Virus record (IMG/VR): IMGVR_UViG_3300028048_000136
Location: 5,410 to 69,409 of that record
From: a virus
Taxonomy: Duplodnaviria; Caudoviricetes
Reading direction: 5' to 3' (one strand)
DNA length: 64,000 nucleotides
The notes under the pieces: generated by a model
Database searches by the model: none
What the model was told of the DNA's origin: nothing
Seen by the model: only the letters and a program-made list of their open reading frames with translations
Translations under genes and position numbers: made by a program
Shown here: in pieces, positions 16,037-48,375 of the stretch
Layout: every line of letters begins with the position of its first letter
How positions within the stretch are numbered: position 1 is the stretch's first letter

Positions 16037-16591
16037 ATGAAATTTAGCAAGTTTTTATATAAACCCAATGGATAAAAATATGCGTCTTTAGGCTCATATA
16101 TGCAGTCTAATAAATATATTATATAATATTTTAAAATTCGGTGAGACTGTTGTTTACAACAAATCTCACCAAACTCTTGGGAAGGACCTCTCGGAGTATA
16201 AAGCCTTCAAACATTTGTGTTACACACAGTTTGAACTAGAATTAGTTTCTAAATGGAACCATCTATCCTTCAGGGTTGATGTAGGTCACTAAATACAATT
16301 AATGAAAGATCATTAGATAAATATGATTTTGAAGACTCAATTTTAAAGCGTATGAAAAAGATGTTTCATAACGTTAAAACTGAAATCAAGGTTAGTGATA
16401 ATGGTACATATTTTAGTGTTAGATTTACTGTCTATGATGATTATGAAGCAAATGCTTATGGCGGTATGCCTTCATGGAAAAAATGGTTTAAAGAAGATTT
16501 AGGTATAGATCCTAAATCTGTTGAAGGTTCAAAAACACGTCATCTTGGCAGTGCTGGTGGATTTGATTATGAAATGCGTATTAATAAGTAA
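16037..16591 (+). pseudogene. 107-aa gene interrupted by a miniature tnpB-type element
   Basis: Removing 16059-16289 restores the frame MKFSKFLLNTINERSLDKYD...MRINK. Confidence 0.8.
16059..16289 (+). mobile_element. Non-autonomous IS200/IS605 derivative (left end + omegaRNA right end)
   Basis: Follows TTTAT, ends GGTCAC, near-identical to both ends of the 45404-46819 element. Confidence 0.9.
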
Positions 16592-20373: not shown

Positions 20374-20574
20374 ATGAAAAAAGTTTGTGAAAACATTGTT
20401 AATGCCTGTTCTGTTGTAATGCTCGCAGACCCAGGTGATAAGAAAATTTGTAGAGCAAATCTTAAAAGTGCTCGTGCTCTTTTAAAAATTCTTAATAAGG
20501 GTAAACCATTAAACGATAAGCAGTTTAATGAGCTAATGCGTTTATATTCCCACGTTAATACTTGGGGTTTTTAA
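20374..20574 (+). CDS. Hypothetical early protein
   Basis: TTGCTT...TATAAT promoter and GAGAGG RBS upstream, terminator downstream. Confidence 0.6.
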   Translation: MKKVCENIVNACSVVMLADPGDKKICRANLKSARALLKILNKGKPLNDKQFNELMRLYSHVNTWGF

Positions 20575-28895: not shown

Positions 28896-29732
28896 ATGAA
28901 TATAATATCTTTTAATAATAAAGCAACAAAAATTGCATTAGGGTCATTCTTTCAATGCAATTTCAAAAATTCTTATTCAGTAACTATTTTAGGTGATGAA
29001 GATGAAGATCTAAAAAAATTCTTATCTTTATATACTAAAAATATAAAATTTAAAAACATAGATTTACTTGAAGCATTGAGAATATCTGATGACGAGACAA
29101 ACATCTTTATACACCCAAACTCACTCACATTAAAACCGATTGAGGACGACTTTTCTTGGTTTTCGCAATTCCAAATGGTTGGGCAAACAAGATATTGGTT
29201 AGAGAATGAATTATGGGACGAGGGTTTGAAAATTCCATTTGTTTCGGGAATTTTTTCTGACGGTTTTGTTATGTTTAATAAATTATACAAACCTGATTTG
29301 GAGCAAGAATACATAAACCGTTTTTGCTCAACCTTTAAAATTGAAAGGAACCACAAAGATTTTGAGATGATTTTCCTTTCTTGGTTGTGCATTAAAAAAC
29401 TAGCTGTAACAGATATTTCAGCAGAAAGCAAGTTTTTTCATTCTACGACTGTTAAAGATTTAAGACATATATATTTTTCGGATAACCCAGATAATCTTTA
29501 TCCTTGGAGTGTGGACATTAATTTCAAACTTCCTTATATTTTTGAACATCTGAACACTTATTACCAATATGCTGATAAGTTTAAATGCAGTTTTGCACAG
29601 CTTGTTAAAAGGAATTCTAAAATGCCATTGATGTCTTTTGAACAGGATTTTAGAAGACGTTTTGAGTTCAGAAGTTGGAGAAACGTTTTTATACCACCTA
29701 ACGAAAGAAATTTTGAAGTTTCTTTATACTGA
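28896..29732 (+). CDS. Hypothetical protein, possibly degenerate GT8-like
   Basis: 'IFSDGFVMFNK' resembles the GT8 FNSG motif; weak. Confidence 0.35.
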   Translation: MNIISFNNKATKIALGSFFQCNFKNSYSVTILGDEDEDLKKFLSLYTKNIKFKNIDLLEALRISDDETNIFIHPNSLTLKPIEDDFSWFSQFQMVGQTRYWLENELWDEGLKIPFVSGIFSDGFVMFNKLYKPDLEQEYINRFCSTFKIERNHKDFEMIFLSWLCIKKLAVTDISAESKFFHSTTVKDLRHIYFSDNPDNLYPWSVDINFKLPYIFEHLNTYYQYADKFKCSFAQLVKRNSKMPLMSFEQDFRRRFEFRSWRNVFIPPNERNFEVSLY

Positions 29733-29849
29733 CCTACATCTACCCTTTGGAGAAGATGTTTCCATTCCTCTATTTAAAATTTGTTTTTATATAAATATTA
29801 TATAATTATTAGAGTCTAAAGGCTCATATTTTTTATCCATTGATCTTAT
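29729..29849 (-). mobile_element. 121-bp miniature tnpB-type element (left end + terminal right-end hairpin)
   Basis: Minus strand: TTTAT|ataagatcaatggataaaaaatatgagcc...catcttctccaaagggtagatgtaggtcag. Confidence 0.8.
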
Positions 29850-29866
29850 ATAAAAGAGATAACACT

Positions 29867-30829
29867 ATGGAACAATTTTATTATCCAAACGATATTAATA
29901 AACCAGAATTTGCTCATAGAAGAATATCATTCATTGCTTGTACGGGTGAATGTGTATTAGGGCGTCCTGATTTAGTTCACGACCTTACATCATCAGTAAT
30001 GTTTAATGCAGGTGTTACGGCCGCAGTTGGAGTAGCATCAGGCGGACTTGCGGCTGCGGGTACAGGTGTGGCAATCGCCGCATTAGGTGAAAACAGCACA
30101 GCAGAAGCAAGGTGTATGATTACACTTCCTTTGCCAGGATCTTTAAGTGATGACCAGTCCCATACTTGGCAATCAGAAAGTATTACTGACGCTGTTAAAC
30201 AAGGTTTTGGCGATATTTCTTCAGCCATAAGTATGGGTTCCAATTCTAAACTTACTAAACTTTTAAATGTGGCTAAAAAAGGTGTGGATTTTGCAAAAAA
30301 AATTGGACCCGCATTGGCAAATCAAACAAGGTCAAGAATGCCGTCATTGAACCCTGGATATTTTCAGAATTATGATAAATCATCATTGAGGATATTCTCA
30401 TTTTCGTTTAAATTTATTCCAGAAAATCGTGAAGAAGCAAAGACAATTGTTGATATTGTAAGTAGGTTTAAAGCGTATTCTTCACCTTCAAAATATTCAG
30501 GCGTTATGCTTTTATCACCTTTTACCTGGTTAATAGTCGTTTCAAATGATAAAATCAACGAACTAATGCAAATTTCCAATTGCGTTTGTATAAGTGTAAA
30601 AGTTACTTACGGAACCGATAAAATGGATTGTTTTGATGATGGTATGCCTAAAGAAATAGGTTTAGACCTTGGTTTTTCAGAGTGCTCTTTGCAGTATTCT
30701 GATAATTATGGTCTTGCTTATGACGGAACCGAAACATTAAGACCTGACACTCAAGAAGAAATGAGGAATATTGAAAACGCTTTTGAAAATATCGGCCAAT
30801 ATGAAGCAGCAAAAGGAACACCAGAATAA
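29867..30829 (+). CDS. gp48: Baseplate tail tube cap
   Basis: 'LPLPGSLSDDQSHTW...NP...LRIFSFSFKFIPENREEA..I..I...FK...SP'. Confidence 0.8.
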   Translation: MEQFYYPNDINKPEFAHRRISFIACTGECVLGRPDLVHDLTSSVMFNAGVTAAVGVASGGLAAAGTGVAIAALGENSTAEARCMITLPLPGSLSDDQSHTWQSESITDAVKQGFGDISSAISMGSNSKLTKLLNVAKKGVDFAKKIGPALANQTRSRMPSLNPGYFQNYDKSSLRIFSFSFKFIPENREEAKTIVDIVSRFKAYSSPSKYSGVMLLSPFTWLIVVSNDKINELMQISNCVCISVKVTYGTDKMDCFDDGMPKEIGLDLGFSECSLQYSDNYGLAYDGTETLRPDTQEEMRNIENAFENIGQYEAAKGTPE

Positions 30830-35102: not shown

Positions 35103-35330
35103 TCTTTTGAAAGAACTGCGTTTCATAAAGATTATTTAGGAAGTAGAATTAAACGAGGTTTGTTTTTATCTTCGTTAGGTAAAGCGTTAAACGCTGACAT
35201 TAACGGAGCTTTAAATATACCAAGAAAATGTAATCAATGAGTTTTCTGTTTTACAGAAAATAATTGATAGAGGTCTTTTGTATAGACCAAGTAGAATTGC
35301 AATCTACTAAACAAAATGTTACTTTTGAAT
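35103..35330 (+). pseudogene. tnpB: 3' remnant of a second, IS607/IS1341-type tnpB plus omegaRNA-like hairpins
   Basis: 35103-35240 reads '...YLGSRIKRGLFLSSLGKALNADINGALNIPRK'; hairpins at 35272-35288 and 35290-35308. Confidence 0.75.
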
Positions 35331-36487: not shown

Positions 36488-36670
36488 ATGAAAGTATTTG
36501 AAATGGGAATTCCAAATTATGCTTACGTTTGGATTTGGTTTTCTGATGATTTAGAAATTAGATGTTCATATTTTGATTTACCTGAAAATTATAAATATTC
36601 AAACGTTAAAAGATATTGGAAAAGAATGAATGAAGACGGAATTGAAATTTTTAATGTAGAAATTTGTTGA
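36488..36670 (+). CDS. Small hypothetical protein
   Basis: GAGG RBS, 60 aa. Confidence 0.5.
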   Translation: MKVFEMGIPNYAYVWIWFSDDLEIRCSYFDLPENYKYSNVKRYWKRMNEDGIEIFNVEIC

Positions 36671-37084
36671 CAACTTATAAATACTATATTATAATATAAT
36701 ATATAAAGACTTTTAAAAAGATCTTAACTGCAAATAACTAAAGAAGTTTGTTTTAACATCTATAGGATAGATCTTGTTTTTGTTGACAAATTATGAATAC
36801 TATATTATAATGTAAAATATAAAGTCTTATAAAGATCTTAACTGCAAATATCTAAAGAAGTTTGCCTAACTAAAGATCTTGTTGACAAATTATGAATACT
36901 ATATTATAATGTAAAATATAAAGTCTTATAAAGATCTTAACTGCAAAATATTAAGTTTATATATCAAAGCTGAATAGATCTTGACATTGTAAATATACAA
37001 GGTAATTAACTTACTTTGTGCTCTTTTTAAAAGATCTAAACTGCAAAATTTAAAGCATTTTATAGTACCACTGACTAGATCTTG
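36667..37084 (+). repeat. Four promoter + small hairpin RNA units
   Basis: TTGACA-17-TATAAT at 36667, 36783, 36882; four AAGATCT(T/A)AACTGCAAA...AGATCTTG units. Confidence 0.85.
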
Positions 37085-38248: not shown

Positions 38249-38331
38249 CACTTTAGCGATTTACAATGGAATTAAAAAAATTGACAGAAGCGCCAGAAAA
38301 ATTAAATGGTCTCTGTTAATTCCTCACAAAA

Positions 38332-38407
38332 TGGGGTATAGCCAAGTGGTAAGGCAGCTGATTTTGATTCAGCCATTTCCTAGGTTCGAGTCCTAGTGCC
38401 CCAGCCA
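38332..38407 (+). tRNA. tRNA-Gln(UUG)
   Basis: Cloverleaf, CCA. Confidence 0.92.
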
Positions 38408-38413
38408 TATTAA

Positions 38414-38842
38414 ATGACAAATAAGGAATGCCCGATGAATGATATAATTTTTAATGAATCTTGTGTTTATCGTTTTAAACCAACTTCAAACCACAGACGC
38501 TGTGATAGATGTGTCTTTCAGATTGTCTTAAATAGTGAAGGAAAATGGTCTGTATATCACTTCAATCGTGCTAAGGGTGTAACACCACCAGAAAAATATA
38601 ATACCATGAATTTTGACGAACAGTTAGATAAACTAGAAAGCCAATTGACTGATCTTCCTTCTTCTGATAAAGTTATTGAGTTCATTGATGATACTTTGAA
38701 AAGATATAATGCCAAACCAAAGGTAGCAGCTGACTTTTTAGGTTCAATCAAAGATGTTCTATCTTGGTGTGAACCTTTGAATGAAAAAGAAATGTATGCG
38801 AGAGCTGAATTGGAACATTATGAAAAAGGTAATCCTTTGTAA
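38414..38842 (+). CDS. Hypothetical protein
   Basis: ORF. Confidence 0.55.
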   Translation: MTNKECPMNDIIFNESCVYRFKPTSNHRRCDRCVFQIVLNSEGKWSVYHFNRAKGVTPPEKYNTMNFDEQLDKLESQLTDLPSSDKVIEFIDDTLKRYNAKPKVAADFLGSIKDVLSWCEPLNEKEMYARAELEHYEKGNPL

Positions 38843-39377
38843 AGCATTCCTTAGTTCATTATTTTGTGGAATGCTCGGTGTTATTTTTATGATTTGGGTA
38901 ATTCCTAAACTTGGTCAAACAGGATTGGGAATTAAAAATGCAGGCGAATTAGGTGTTTCATTTTTAGCAACATCTATTGTTTCATTCAAGAAGATTATTT
39001 CTTTAATACATAATAATATAAGAAAAATGATAATTTTTGGATGGCTTATATCCTATGTTGACTCATTTTTGATTTTAACAGAAAATATATGGATTATTGT
39101 TGCTTCTTGTATGTTTGTAGGCTACTTTGTTCTTAATTTTTATTTTTGTGGTATGAATAATATCGTAAATGAAACATTCCACGAAAAAGAGTTGACTCAA
39201 TTACAAAATCAGAAAAATAGTTTTTGGACAGCAGGAGCTTCAATAGGTGCTGTTTTAGGAGCATTTATACCTAATACCTGCTTTTGTATGTTCTTAATCT
39301 GTTTTATTGAAACGACCATTTGTTTCTTTCTATCTTGGAAAATGGTGAATATATATGAAAAAAGAAATTTTGGATAA
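38820..39377 (+). CDS. Multi-pass membrane protein
   Basis: About six hydrophobic segments; start moved to ATG 38820. Confidence 0.6.
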   Translation: MKKVILCKAFLSSLFCGMLGVIFMIWVIPKLGQTGLGIKNAGELGVSFLATSIVSFKKIISLIHNNIRKMIIFGWLISYVDSFLILTENIWIIVASCMFVGYFVLNFYFCGMNNIVNETFHEKELTQLQNQKNSFWTAGASIGAVLGAFIPNTCFCMFLICFIETTICFFLSWKMVNIYEKRNFG

Positions 39378-39639
39378 TTTCGACTTTGAAAGTGTTCACC
39401 GTGTGATGGAATTTATTCACTTTGCTCAAAAAATTCCTTCAATCAAAGAAATGAAGAAACACACTAGCAAGCTCATTGACAATGCACTCAAAGGTCTTAA
39501 AAAATCTGGACTCAACGAATACATCGTTATATCGGGAGGGTTTGAGGCTTGTGCATTTTACGGAGAAGAAGGAGCTGAGGTTGCATTACGATTTATAGGA
39601 TTGCAACTCTTTTGGAGAAAAAAGACATTGACATTCTAA
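39355..39639 (+). CDS. Hypothetical protein
   Basis: ORF. Confidence 0.5.
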   Translation: MKKEILDNFDFESVHRVMEFIHFAQKIPSIKEMKKHTSKLIDNALKGLKKSGLNEYIVISGGFEACAFYGEEGAEVALRFIGLQLFWRKKTLTF

Positions 39640-39816
39640 TAATTATATTATATAATATTTTAAAATTCGGTGAGTCTGTTGTTTACAACAAATCTCACCA
39701 AACTCTTGGGAAGGACCTCTCGGAGTATAAAGCCTTCAAACATTTGTGTTACACACAGTTTGAACTGGAATTAGTTCTAAATGGAACCATCTACCCTTTA
39801 GGTAGATGTAGGTCAC
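39628..39816 (+). ncRNA. Stand-alone TnpB omegaRNA scaffold with perfect sigma70 promoter
   Basis: TTGACA-17-TATAAT (39628-39656), then the right-end sequence to GGTCAC; left-end hairpin absent. Confidence 0.8.
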
Positions 39817-39840
39817 AAGTTTAATAGATAACAGAACAGC

Positions 39841-39918
39841 GGAGCGGTAGTTCAGCTTGGTTAGAATGCCTGCCTGTCACGCAGGAGGTCGCGGGTTCGA
39901 GCCCCGTCCGTTCCGCCA
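39841..39918 (+). tRNA. tRNA-Asp(GUC)
   Basis: Cloverleaf, CCA. Confidence 0.96.
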
Positions 39919-39928
39919 AATTAAGTTC

Positions 39929-40017
39929 GGAGAGATGGGTGAGTGGCTGAAACCAACTGCCTACTAAGCAGTCAACCGTTTTTCGGTTCGTGGGTTCGAA
40001 TCCCACTCTCTCCGCCA
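39929..40017 (+). tRNA. tRNA-Ser with ACU anticodon
   Basis: Long variable arm; loop CT-ACT-AA; CCA. Confidence 0.88.
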
Positions 40018-40075
40018 CTTTATAAGTGTTTGTGAAAAGATTTTTTAATCATTAGTGAGCACATTTAATTTTTAT

Positions 40076-40293
40076 AAAAATCAATGAATAAAAATATGAG
40101 CCTTTAGACTCATATATACAGTCTAATAAATATATTATATAATATTTTAAAATTCTGTGAGTCTGTTGTTTACAACAAACTCTTGAGAAGGACCTCTCGG
40201 AGTATAAAGCCTTCAAACATTTGTGTTACACACAGTTTGAACTGGAATTAGTTCTAAATGGAAGTATCTACCTTTAGGGTAGATGTAGGTCAC
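40076..40293 (+). mobile_element. Non-autonomous tnpB-type derivative (left end + right end)
   Basis: Follows TTTAT, ends GGTCAC; short deletion inside the scaffold. Confidence 0.88.
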
Positions 40294-40352
40294 ATAATAT
40301 AAATAGAATGCACTTGCTTTAATTAAGCAAATAACGAGTTGGAGATTAATTA

Positions 40353-40730
40353 ATGAAAGAGTTTTTACCTATAAAAAGAGAAGAAGCAATTAAGAAAATT
40401 GCTGAATATTTCAGAACTACCAATTCCGAAACAGTAGGTATTGTCTTTGAAAAGCAAAGAGATGCTACAGCATTTTTAGATGAAGTTAAAAAGAACTTAG
40501 ATAAAGGAAGAGTTTGGAATAAGAAATCAATTGAGTCTAATACCAACACAAGAGTTGTGACTGATAATTGTAGAAACCCAATAAGAATTTTGTCAGGTTG
40601 GTCTTGTTCAAAACTCTTCATAGAGCAAAAATGCTTTGAAAAACATTCTGAAGATTTTTACAAAACTTGTATTTGTCCTCAATGTGCTTTAAACCCTGAT
40701 AATGTTGAAAACTACCTGATAATAGATTGA
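40353..40730 (+). CDS. Hypothetical protein
   Basis: ORF with GGAG RBS. Confidence 0.6.
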   Translation: MKEFLPIKREEAIKKIAEYFRTTNSETVGIVFEKQRDATAFLDEVKKNLDKGRVWNKKSIESNTNTRVVTDNCRNPIRILSGWSCSKLFIEQKCFEKHSEDFYKTCICPQCALNPDNVENYLIID

Positions 40731-40739
40731 GTTTTTGAA

Positions 40740-41012
40740 ATGAATGTACAAATACCTTTTGATTTACTTGGTGATTATGAATCAATGGTTCTCAATACCG
40801 ATGACTCTTTTTATCAATTAACGGTACGCTATCAGGGTGCTAATATAACAATAACTCTAAATAAACACGAAATAGAATCATACGATTTTAAAATTGCTGA
40901 ACCTGAAGGAAAAAGAAAAGTTAAAGAAGTTCTACCATCTTTAATTGGATATTTTGAAAAACTTGGTTATATAAATGTTTGCAGAATAAATGAAATTCAA
41001 GAATTACATTAA
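40740..41012 (+). CDS. Hypothetical protein
   Basis: ORF. Confidence 0.55.
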   Translation: MNVQIPFDLLGDYESMVLNTDDSFYQLTVRYQGANITITLNKHEIESYDFKIAEPEGKRKVKEVLPSLIGYFEKLGYINVCRINEIQELH

Positions 41013-45303: not shown

Positions 45304-45403
45304 GAGGCATTTAAAGAATGAGGTACATTGTTACGGACCCTTGTTACATTATAAGAGATGACAAAGTTTGGAAAGAATTTTGCAAAAAATCAAACGAATT
45401 TAT

Positions 45404-46819
45404 ATAAACCCGATGGATAAAAATATGAGCCTTTAAGCTCATATACACTCTAATAAATATATTATATAATATTTATATAAAAATAGAGGAATTTGAATGA
45501 CTAAGATTATCAGAGGTTTAGTTCTTGAACTAAAGCCTGATAGTGCTCAAAAACTGCTTTTAGATAAGCATTTAAATGATTGTAGATTTATCTATAACAA
45601 ATATGTTGAAGAATATTTAAAAGCACTTAAAGAAAATAGAGCACCAAATTATAAGGATTATAAAGAATTGCGTACGGAGTACGAATTTCTTTTAGGTTCT
45701 TATTCATGGTCTATTCAACAAGTTCTTTATAAATTTAAACAGACCAATAAAATCAATAGATCAAAAAGAGCAAAAGGTCAAAAGGTTGGATTAGTTAGAT
45801 TCAAATCTAAAAAGGCCCATTCAGATTATTTTTATAGTAATAATTTAAACCTTTCGTATAATCCTGACTGTAAGTCAAAGTCATACGTAAAAATTCCAAA
45901 GGTAGGAAATGTTCATTTTAACTGTAAAAATATTAAACCTGAATTTTTAAACGGTAAAATTAAGTCAGGAACTATTAAAAGAACCAAAACCGGAGTTTAC
46001 AAAGTATCGTTACTTGTCGAGGTCGACAAGGTTTACGAAGACCGTGTGGATAATGGACATATTGGTTTAGATTTTTCCCTAAAAGATTTCTTCGTTGACA
46101 GTTTTGGTGCAAATGCACCAGAGTTCTCAACAAAGAGATCTAAGATGGAATTACTCCAAAATAAAATTAATTCTTTAAATACTGCTATTTCAAAGATGAT
46201 AAACAAATCCAAGAAAAAGCGTAAGGTCTCCGTTAAAGTCCATCGTATCACGATGAAGCGTAACAAATTATTTGAAAGAGTTCATAATATCCAAGTTGAT
46301 TATATCAACAAGTTATCAAGAAATTTGTGTAAACACAATGAGTTGATAGTTATTGAGAACTTAGACCTTAAAGAAATGGCTGAACATACTTCTTATAAGG
46401 ATTCCAAAATTTCCACTAAAGGTGGAAATCATGGAAAGTCTATAAGTTTGTTACAATGGAGTTATTTTCTCAAAAAGTTAGAAGAAAATGCTGAGAAGTT
46501 TGGAGACATAATTGTCTATACAGACAAATACTATCCAAGCTCTCAGGTCTGTTCTAAATGTGGAGAAAGGAATCCAGAAATGAAAGATGTTACCAACCGT
46601 ACACTAAAGTGTAAGTGCGGTAATATTATTGATAGAGATTATAATTCAGCAATTAATATTTTAAAATTCGGTGAGTCTGTTGTTCACAACAAATCTCACC
46701 AAACTCTTGGGAAGGACCTCTCGGAGTATAAAGCCTTCAAACATTTGTGTTACACACAGTTTGAACTAGAATTAGTTTCTAAATGGAAGCATCTACCCTT
46801 TAGGGTTGATGTAGGTCAC
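45404..46819 (+). mobile_element. IS200/IS605-family tnpB-only element (IS1341-like), TAM TTTAT
   Basis: Subterminal left- and right-end hairpins, no target duplication, ends TCAC, no tnpA. Confidence 0.92.
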
Positions 46820-46849
46820 AGGTCCTTATGTTACACCAGAGGCAGTTAA
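45497..46849 (+). CDS. tnpB: TnpB RNA-guided endonuclease
   Basis: RuvC 'IGLDF', 'VIENL', 'DRDYNSAINI'; zinc finger CSKC/CKC; catalytic D-E-D intact. Confidence 0.95.
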   Translation: MTKIIRGLVLELKPDSAQKLLLDKHLNDCRFIYNKYVEEYLKALKENRAPNYKDYKELRTEYEFLLGSYSWSIQQVLYKFKQTNKINRSKRAKGQKVGLVRFKSKKAHSDYFYSNNLNLSYNPDCKSKSYVKIPKVGNVHFNCKNIKPEFLNGKIKSGTIKRTKTGVYKVSLLVEVDKVYEDRVDNGHIGLDFSLKDFFVDSFGANAPEFSTKRSKMELLQNKINSLNTAISKMINKSKKKRKVSVKVHRITMKRNKLFERVHNIQVDYINKLSRNLCKHNELIVIENLDLKEMAEHTSYKDSKISTKGGNHGKSISLLQWSYFLKKLEENAEKFGDIIVYTDKYYPSSQVCSKCGERNPEMKDVTNRTLKCKCGNIIDRDYNSAINILKFGESVVHNKSHQTLGKDLSEYKAFKHLCYTQFELELVSKWKHLPFRVDVGHRSLCYTRGS

Positions 46850-47379
46850 GGTTTTAAGAGAATACATTGGACTTTCAACTGATGACCTCATAGAAGTTGA
46901 GGAAACAGGTTATGGTGATTGGTGCAATTCTATCAAATCGCTAAGTGATAAAGTTAATATCATAAGAAAAGGATTTTATGCTGACGCTGGTTTGGTTTGC
47001 GTTGTGCCTCTTACTGATGATTTAAAAGACGTTAATGGAGCAATTTTTGAAGTTCCTGATAATGCAAAGATTACAGTCGATTTAGACACCAAAAACAAAT
47101 ATTGGACTATGATATATGTTTATATGGATAACAATTTAGTTGTGGTGTCCGAACAAAATGAGGAAGAAGAAGTTTGATTTTTGGGATGGTTTTGATTTCC
47201 CACCAAAAAGAAGTCCTTTCTTGAAAAACTTTTAAATTTTTTTAAAAGGAAATAAAAATGCGTGTTTATGACATTCTCAATTTTAATAACGGCATTTCGG
47301 AAATAGCAATAAGAGTGGGAAAATAATTGTCGCTCAAATATTTTCAACGAAAATTTTAAGGAGCTTGAATTTTCTGAAA

Positions 47380-48254: not shown

Positions 48255-48344
48255 ATCATTCAAATTCCTTAATATAAATATTAAATATAACTCCAATGCC
48301 TGTATATGAGCATAAAGTCTCATATTTTTTATCCATTGGTTTTT
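48255..48344 (-). mobile_element. Left-end remnant of the tnpB element
   Basis: Minus strand: ccaatggataaaaaatatgagactttatgctcatatac...aggaatttgaatga. Confidence 0.7.
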
Positions 48345-48375
48345 AAATACTTAAAATATTTTAAAGGAATTTTGT

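Follow-up and report, generated by a model that had tools for sequence, protein, structure and literature searches.

TnpB biology is known from bacteria, and the role of TnpB in virulent phages is essentially untested. PATEs, elements that have no tnpB, often encode an omegaRNA for which TnpB must be supplied in trans (Meers et al. 2023, PMC10055086). The RNA of ISDra2 consists of a 116-nt scaffold and a 16-nt guide (PMC10097598). Here we describe an omegaRNA locus at 39.6 kb of a 64,000-nt stretch of phage DNA (the window, meaning the whole stretch analysed). The greater part of a 69.4-kb IMG/VR virus fragment, about 38% complete, falls within the window. Its G+C content is 31.8%, its baseplate and tail genes are T4-like, and its ten tRNA genes lie between 35.7 and 42.2 kb.

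Like the PATE-like elements, the 39.6-kb copy has no protein gene, keeps its right end (RE) and omegaRNA, derives from a tnpB element that the genome also carries, and depends on TnpB supplied in trans. It differs from them in lacking the left-end (LE) hairpin, and thus transposition competence, and in the direct fusion of the LE promoter to the scaffold. It also belongs to a T4-like phage and continues directly into a tRNA. With ISDra2 (PDB 8H1J/8EXA; PMC10097598) the resemblance is seen in both partners. The phage TnpB aligns over residues 7-390 and keeps the RuvC D/E/D residues, and the layout of the phage RNA matches that of ISDra2, with a multi-stem scaffold of ~117 nt and a guide formed by the 3′ flank of the RE; for the close copies a candidate long-range pairing next to the 5′ side of the guide is predicted. 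However, the phage TAM is TTTAT while that of ISDra2 is TTGAT, the scaffold sequences are unrelated, and a tRNA would fix the 3′ end of the phage guide.

In being immobile and having a fixed guide, the omegaRNA locus also recalls TldR-type domesticated TnpB (PMC10705468), but the phage TnpB keeps its catalytic residues, no conserved guide-target pair is known, and the cassette is not conserved. T4 SegB and other free-standing phage homing endonucleases (Brok-Volchanskaya 2008, as cited in PMC13565253) offer a further likeness: a nuclease system in a T4-like tRNA region that could bias inheritance in co-infection. In contrast to SegB, recognition at the phage locus would be RNA-guided and supplied in trans, its cleavage and homing being putative.

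On balance we favour the view that the 39.6-kb cassette is a tnpB-less, PATE-like and 5′-damaged derivative of an IS200/IS605 TnpB-only element of this T4-like phage clade, and that it still makes an omegaRNA usable in trans against element-free alleles. The features of the locus and of the related copies are collected in Table 1.

Table 1. Coordinates of the 39.6-kb cassette, its surroundings and the related element copies in the window.
Feature	Position	Strand	Basis or remarks
Mini-element interrupting a gene, with LE hairpin and the same deletion junction as the 39.6-kb copy	16059..16289	+	alignment, excision
94-aa phage ORF, C-terminus rewritten by the element remnant	39355..39639	+	homolog comparison P0002-P0006
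TTTAT, candidate original TAM	39592..39596	+	exact break in homology to related ORFs (L027/L028 nucleotides)
31 nt, possibly the decayed or rearranged 5′ part of LE, without canonical LE hairpin	39597..39627	+	
LE-derived sigma-70 promoter TTGACA-17-TATAAT, 12/12	39628..39656	+	block identical in L009, L010
omegaRNA scaffold, 154 nt, RE boundary GGTCAC at its end	39663..39816	+	copy alignment, covariation
24-nt guide region = 5′ leader of tRNA-Asp	39817..39840	+	read from sequence
tRNA-Asp (GTC)	39841..39918	+	ARAGORN; Rfam RF00005, 63.4 bits
tRNA-Ser (anticodon ACT), co-transcription with tRNA-Asp probable	39929..40017	+	ARAGORN, Rfam; no terminator 39628-40017
Second mini-element, scaffold stem 1 half deleted	40076..40293	+	TAM TTTAT 40071-40075, intact LE hairpin, common junction
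Full-length parent element	45404..46819	+	tnpB ORF 45497-46849; omegaRNA 46654-46819
Second full-length copy, LE and 5′ part of tnpB, runs off contig end	62996..64000	+	

The element family and its deletion forms

The tnpB ORF of the full-length parent codes for 450 aa with the Pfam domains HTH_OrfB_IS605, OrfB_IS605 and Cas12f-like TNB. This protein matches the ISDra2 TnpB structures at E 4e-33, and in the alignment to 8H1J the motifs GLD, IEN and DRD stand at the D/E/D positions. The TnpB at 45497 that the first-pass annotation called intact is ISDra2-like and keeps its RuvC triad in this alignment. Protein homology stops at about residue 390, exactly at the scaffold start. The TnpB family comprises more than 120 clusters at 76-89% identity, all in T4-like contexts.

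In-silico excision of 16059-16289 restored a 107-aa ORF, and that of 45404-46819 restored a 147-aa ORF; these ORF-restoring excisions identify TTTAT as the TAM and GGTCAC as the right end. The guides of both copies read as the continuation of the interrupted gene. The interrupted phage ORFs occupy 45315-47200 (full-length element) and 16037-16591 (16-kb mini-element), which indicates that the phage tolerates recent gene-disrupting insertions.

The mini-elements at 16, 39.6 and 40 kb have no tnpB and share a common junction, TATAATATTT/TAAAATTCGG, the product of a microhomology deletion (TAATATTT). This deletion would have taken out tnpB and joined the LE promoter directly to the scaffold. In the 40-kb copy (40076-40293) half of scaffold stem 1 is also deleted. 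The phage has at least eight copies in at least five deletion forms. Among related records, another junction class, ATTTTAAA, is found in L010 and L014, and in L008 and L011 the LE hairpin is fused to the 117-nt core. In a fifth class a single step joined the scaffold to roughly the first 30 codons of tnpB (L048:4520-4781, L054:1400-1664; IMGVR_UViG_3300045988_180922).

Two further copies lie on the minus strand of the window. The one at 29729-29867 has TTTAT, an LE with the 3′ half of the hairpin deleted, the LE promoter/RBS region and, of the RE, the last stem-loop only, which ends in GTAGGTCA; it has no omegaRNA core and represents a fourth mini type. The other, at 48255-48345, is a solo LE that keeps its hairpin intact and leads into a 14-codon ORF where tnpB would stand. 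The two were considered as reciprocal products of the truncation at 39.6 kb and rejected, the former being a mini-element with its own RE hairpin and the latter a solo LE. Upstream of the tRNA-Met cluster and ORF 35342, part of the C-terminus of a different TnpB survives at 35179-35241 (...NADINGALNI...), with hairpins behind it; this may mark another omegaRNA stump of unrelated origin.

Promoter, left end and scaffold of the 39.6-kb copy

The promoter consists of a -35 box TTGACA (39628-39633), a 17-nt spacer and a -10 box TATAAT (39651-39656), and ends about 7 nt ahead of the scaffold. The first-pass annotation had read it as a perfect TTGACA-17-TATAAT against TATACA-17-TATAAT in the parental copies, and this is correct. 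The exact consensus occurs four times in the window, while 0.03 occurrences are expected from shuffled sequence. The other three lie within 36667-36910, in a tandem array of short units right after tRNA-Gly.

If the -35 box of the 39.6-kb copy is perfect, then we can ask: was it improved there, as the idea of domestication implied? The identical 33-nt promoter block stands ahead of the tnpB ATG in L009 and in an intact-LE mini-element in L010, from a related phage, so that the perfect box is not peculiar to this copy. By this comparison it is an inherited feature and no adaptation of the 39.6-kb copy.

The canonical LE hairpin, ATATGAG...CTCATAT, is present in the copies at 16077, 40093 and 45422 and, in agreement with the earlier reading, absent from the 39.6-kb copy. 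As single-stranded DNA, 39597-39627 folds into a weak, non-homologous A/T stem only (z -1.5), and in local alignment it resembles the LE only marginally (score 9; shuffled sequence gives 6.2 ± 1.3, and 102 of 2000 shuffles reach 9, p ~0.05). The 16-kb and 40-kb mini-elements have both LE and RE hairpins with the TAM at the LE, and the 39.6-kb copy has the RE hairpin only. A lesion later than the tnpB deletion would have removed the LE hairpin, and because this hairpin is missing, TnpA could not move the copy. The immobility proposed at first therefore stands.

As a mark of domestication, the same loss carries little weight. LE loss is common in the family: full-length tnpB copies of two related phages (L039:9830-10000 and L040:9830-10000) have no recognisable LE hairpin, and it is damaged in the 29.7-kb copy and in L009. 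The hairpin-less full-length copies suggest persistence or spread of the family without TnpA. No match to TnpA (PF01797) was found in G000, G001 and G002, three phage fragments 4-48% complete.

A candidate for the original insertion site is marked by a TTTAT 31 nt ahead of the first base that can be recognised as LE. Homologs of the upstream ORF (P0002-P0006) have the C-terminus ...LRFIVEE followed by F or W and the stop. The window protein departs from them right after ...LRFI, whose codons contain this TTTAT, and continues with 13 foreign codons to a TAA at 39637. At a density of 3.8 TTTAT per kb, its presence at the homology break may be a coincidence. When TTTAT (39596) was joined in silico to 39817, the ORF ended in ...RFISLIDNRTAER and a stop, unlike the ...RFIVEE(F/W) of the homologs. 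The arrangement fits a canonical TAM insertion followed by LE decay. No relatives of the 94-aa ORF were found in IMG/VR, and nucleotide relatives in INPHARED did not extend beyond one 64-nt tRNA match.

Scaffold copies are found in the window at 16124-16289, 39653-39818, 40130-40295 and 46654-46819, with one more at the start of the record. The 39.6-kb scaffold is 96% identical to that at 46654-46819, which overlaps the 3′ end of tnpB. It comprises stem 1 (39669-39699) and the 117-nt core (39700-39816), its start being placed from the -10 position. Among 11 and among 17 aligned copies (six phage records) the similarity ends at the RE boundary, GGTCAC or GTTCAC across the 17 copies, and the flanks all differ. 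Compensatory double changes occur in 12 of the 40 consensus pairs, in an alignment across diverged subfamilies. RNAalifold on the close copies gave a GCCU-AGGU pairing 3 nt before the guide, in columns that are invariant; this pairing was not recovered in the wider alignment. No Rfam family was assigned to the scaffold even at E ≤1. Together with the excisions and the tnpB overlap, the covariation and copy alignments establish the scaffold as a true omegaRNA, and its element as a TnpB-only member of the IS200/IS605 family.

In the 39.6-kb copy one consensus pair of 40 is broken, as against 0-1 in the tnpB-linked copies and 8/40, 5/40 and 3/40 in the decaying orphans at 40 kb, in L010 and in L054. 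Its minimum free energy is -47.5 kcal/mol (z -2.8). This scaffold is thus structurally intact. Given its consensus promoter, the lack of a terminator and the cognate nuclease encoded 5.7 kb away, the copy likely produces a loadable omegaRNA.

The same facts can be read in other ways. The remnant may have been co-opted as the only strong nearby promoter for tRNA-Asp and tRNA-Ser, its omegaRNA being a long 5′ leader that RNase P discards; we consider this rather unlikely. It is indeed the only 12/12 promoter on the plus strand of 38300-40800, there is no terminator ahead of the tRNAs, the three remaining perfect promoters of the window drive small RNAs, and other mini-elements, such as that of L010, lie directly upstream of genes in the same orientation. 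However, the upstream genes are co-directional and their read-through could serve the tRNAs, and a comparable orphan copy in L040, described below, has just a weak promoter-like sequence. A leader role alone would not preserve 39 of 40 pairs either, unless the copy is very recent.

Recent origin is the core of a second alternative, in which the cassette is a functionless deletion product, intact through youth, whose transcription or TnpB loading is irrelevant to the phage. The 96% identity to the parental scaffold, the many other decaying copies in the genome and the four identical assemblies, which give no evolutionary depth, agree with such an inert scar. But a consensus promoter without a terminator makes transcription hard to avoid, and the cognate TnpB is close by. 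This seems to us improbable, and we return to the favoured reading, a damaged PATE-like derivative whose RNA may still be used.

The guide, the tRNA leader and possible targets

The succession of GGTCAC ending at 39816, 24 nt and tRNA-Asp is exactly as first annotated. Under the favoured reading, host RNA polymerase would start at about 39663 and make a transcript of scaffold, 24-nt flank, tRNA-Asp and tRNA-Ser. No plus-strand terminator was found between 39628 and 40017, that is, from the promoter through tRNA-Ser. With none before tRNA-Asp, RNase P cleavage at the tRNA 5′ end would free an omegaRNA with a guide tail of up to 24 nt. In engineered tRNA-gRNA arrays, RNase P cleavage at the tRNA 5′ end frees the upstream guide RNA. 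Unlike these, the phage arrangement is natural and probably accidental, and other orphan copies have no downstream tRNA. The TnpB of the full-length copies would then load the 39.6-kb omegaRNA in trans. We infer expression, RNase P processing and loading from the layout of the locus.

The origin of the guide can be judged by an independent case. In L040:12752-13014 (ena:ERZ27232929:k141_78130), from a diverged T4-like phage, an orphan scaffold with 0/40 pairs broken and no LE hairpin stands 23 nt upstream of tRNA-Met, and the stop of the upstream ORF abuts the scaffold. The element-free L041 has a tRNA leader (minus strand, ~20460-20482) in which 22 of these 23 “guide” nucleotides are found again, with an exact match over the last 20. 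This comparison shows directly that the L040 “guide” is the native tRNA leader. The L041 leader is preceded by AAAAC, not TTTAT, so the L041 allele would be uncleavable if the TAM is strict. The 39.6-kb guide, too, is most likely an old tRNA leader rather than a purpose-built guide gene, that is, a sequence present before the element and not an acquired spacer.

LE-less orphans with an intact scaffold 23-24 nt from a tRNA make up two of about 10 independent orphans, which exceeds the expectation for uniform insertion. tRNA islands are known sinks for mobile DNA. No element copies next to a tRNA were found in G001 and G002. A TAM at a fixed distance upstream of tRNAs was considered as the cause of the 23/24-nt spacing and rejected, TTTAT about 24 nt upstream being unseen in 20 tRNA leaders. 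The adjacency most likely reflects pile-up of elements in tolerant tRNA islands, with no designed processing signal.

If the guide is an old tRNA leader, its only predictable target would be the same locus in related phages, in an element-free allele flanked by TTTAT. Cutting such alleles would amount to homing or marker exclusion in co-infection, the target itself being hypothetical. It would belong to a category already recognised, non-restorative homing into phages that co-infect (PMC13565253). An element-free allele of the tRNA-Asp leader was not found in IMG/VR, the genomes or the relatives searched.

By eye, the first-pass annotation had seen no TTTAT-adjacent match to the guide in the window, and our search of the 69-kb record, which allowed up to 4 mismatches, agrees in giving none at ≤3 mismatches. 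The 18-mer of the guide, the RE-guide junction and the leader-tRNA junction each had 0 matches in IMG/VR, and the guide had 0 in the related phage records G001 and G002. TAM plus 16-nt matches, three in 185,579 genomes and two in metagenomes, were rejected as chance, since all end at nt 16 and belong to unrelated taxa. Among catalogued phages and plasmids the best E value was at least 2. Thus TTTAT plus guide had no credible non-trivial target in the record, IMG/VR, the 185k genomes, metagenomes, catalogued phages or plasmids.

The cassette is 100% identical in four independent assemblies, so it is real, yet it represents a single genotype. In relatives with an ORF at 56-66% identity, the corresponding position lacks both the element and a tRNA, and tRNA-Asp is absent from the relatives G001 and G003-G005; the conservation expected of a guide gene is not seen. 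One contig segment, L036:4760-4934 (jgi:3300026525), equals the window up to the middle of tRNA-Asp and then passes into unrelated sequence of higher GC. Its divergent tail was rejected as a real variant and probably arose by chimeric assembly across a shared tRNA segment.

The domestication proposal, in which the phage keeps an immobilised, strongly expressed omegaRNA whose RNase P-trimmed 24-nt guide sends TnpB to a non-self target (host, defence element or rival phage), is the least probable reading. It could draw on the 12/12 promoter, the intact scaffold, the nuclease intact by sequence and the second independent LE-less orphan 23 nt before a tRNA in L040, but the promoter is inherited (L009, L010), LE loss is common, the 16-nt matches are spurious with none in related records, the single genotype is missing from diverged relatives, and the guide of the L040 analogue is a native leader, so that there is support neither for promoter improvement nor for guide conservation nor for a non-self target. 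The refuting outcome named in the first-pass annotation, with the trivial empty site as sole target and a cassette that is not conserved, agrees with these results and weakens the proposal.

Decay or possible homing in the phage clade

The phage clade shows the full life cycle of the IS605 family, from full copies through promoter-omegaRNA mini-elements to immobile stumps. TnpA was not seen with most of the sampled copies, and the LE hairpin is missing from several, which fits TnpB-driven homing over transposition. One may go further and propose that the orphan omegaRNAs of phage tRNA islands serve as cassettes for RNA-guided homing. Such cassettes would be co-transcribed with tRNAs, have their guides cut by RNase P and direct TnpB in trans against the element-free alleles of co-infecting relatives, and element and tRNA genes would spread together without TnpA. 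As a general statement this is speculative, and we think it unlikely. PATE-like omegaRNA elements are already known, and there is a modest chance that the 39.6-kb locus has the more interesting homing role.

Should TnpB take up the orphan RNAs and cut element-free alleles with them, the result would be a simple natural multi-guide system and a model for RNA-guided marker exclusion between phages. Such homing, if real, would parallel that of T4 SegB in the tRNA region, with an RNA as the guide. Otherwise the locus is a well-resolved case of transposon decay in which a strong promoter was donated to two tRNA genes.

The second of these tRNA genes has a peculiarity of its own. Its anticodon ACT (A34) is unusual for a bacterial-type tRNA-Ser, and it occurs in two different phages of the clade (window 39929-40017; L041 19388-19479, minus strand).
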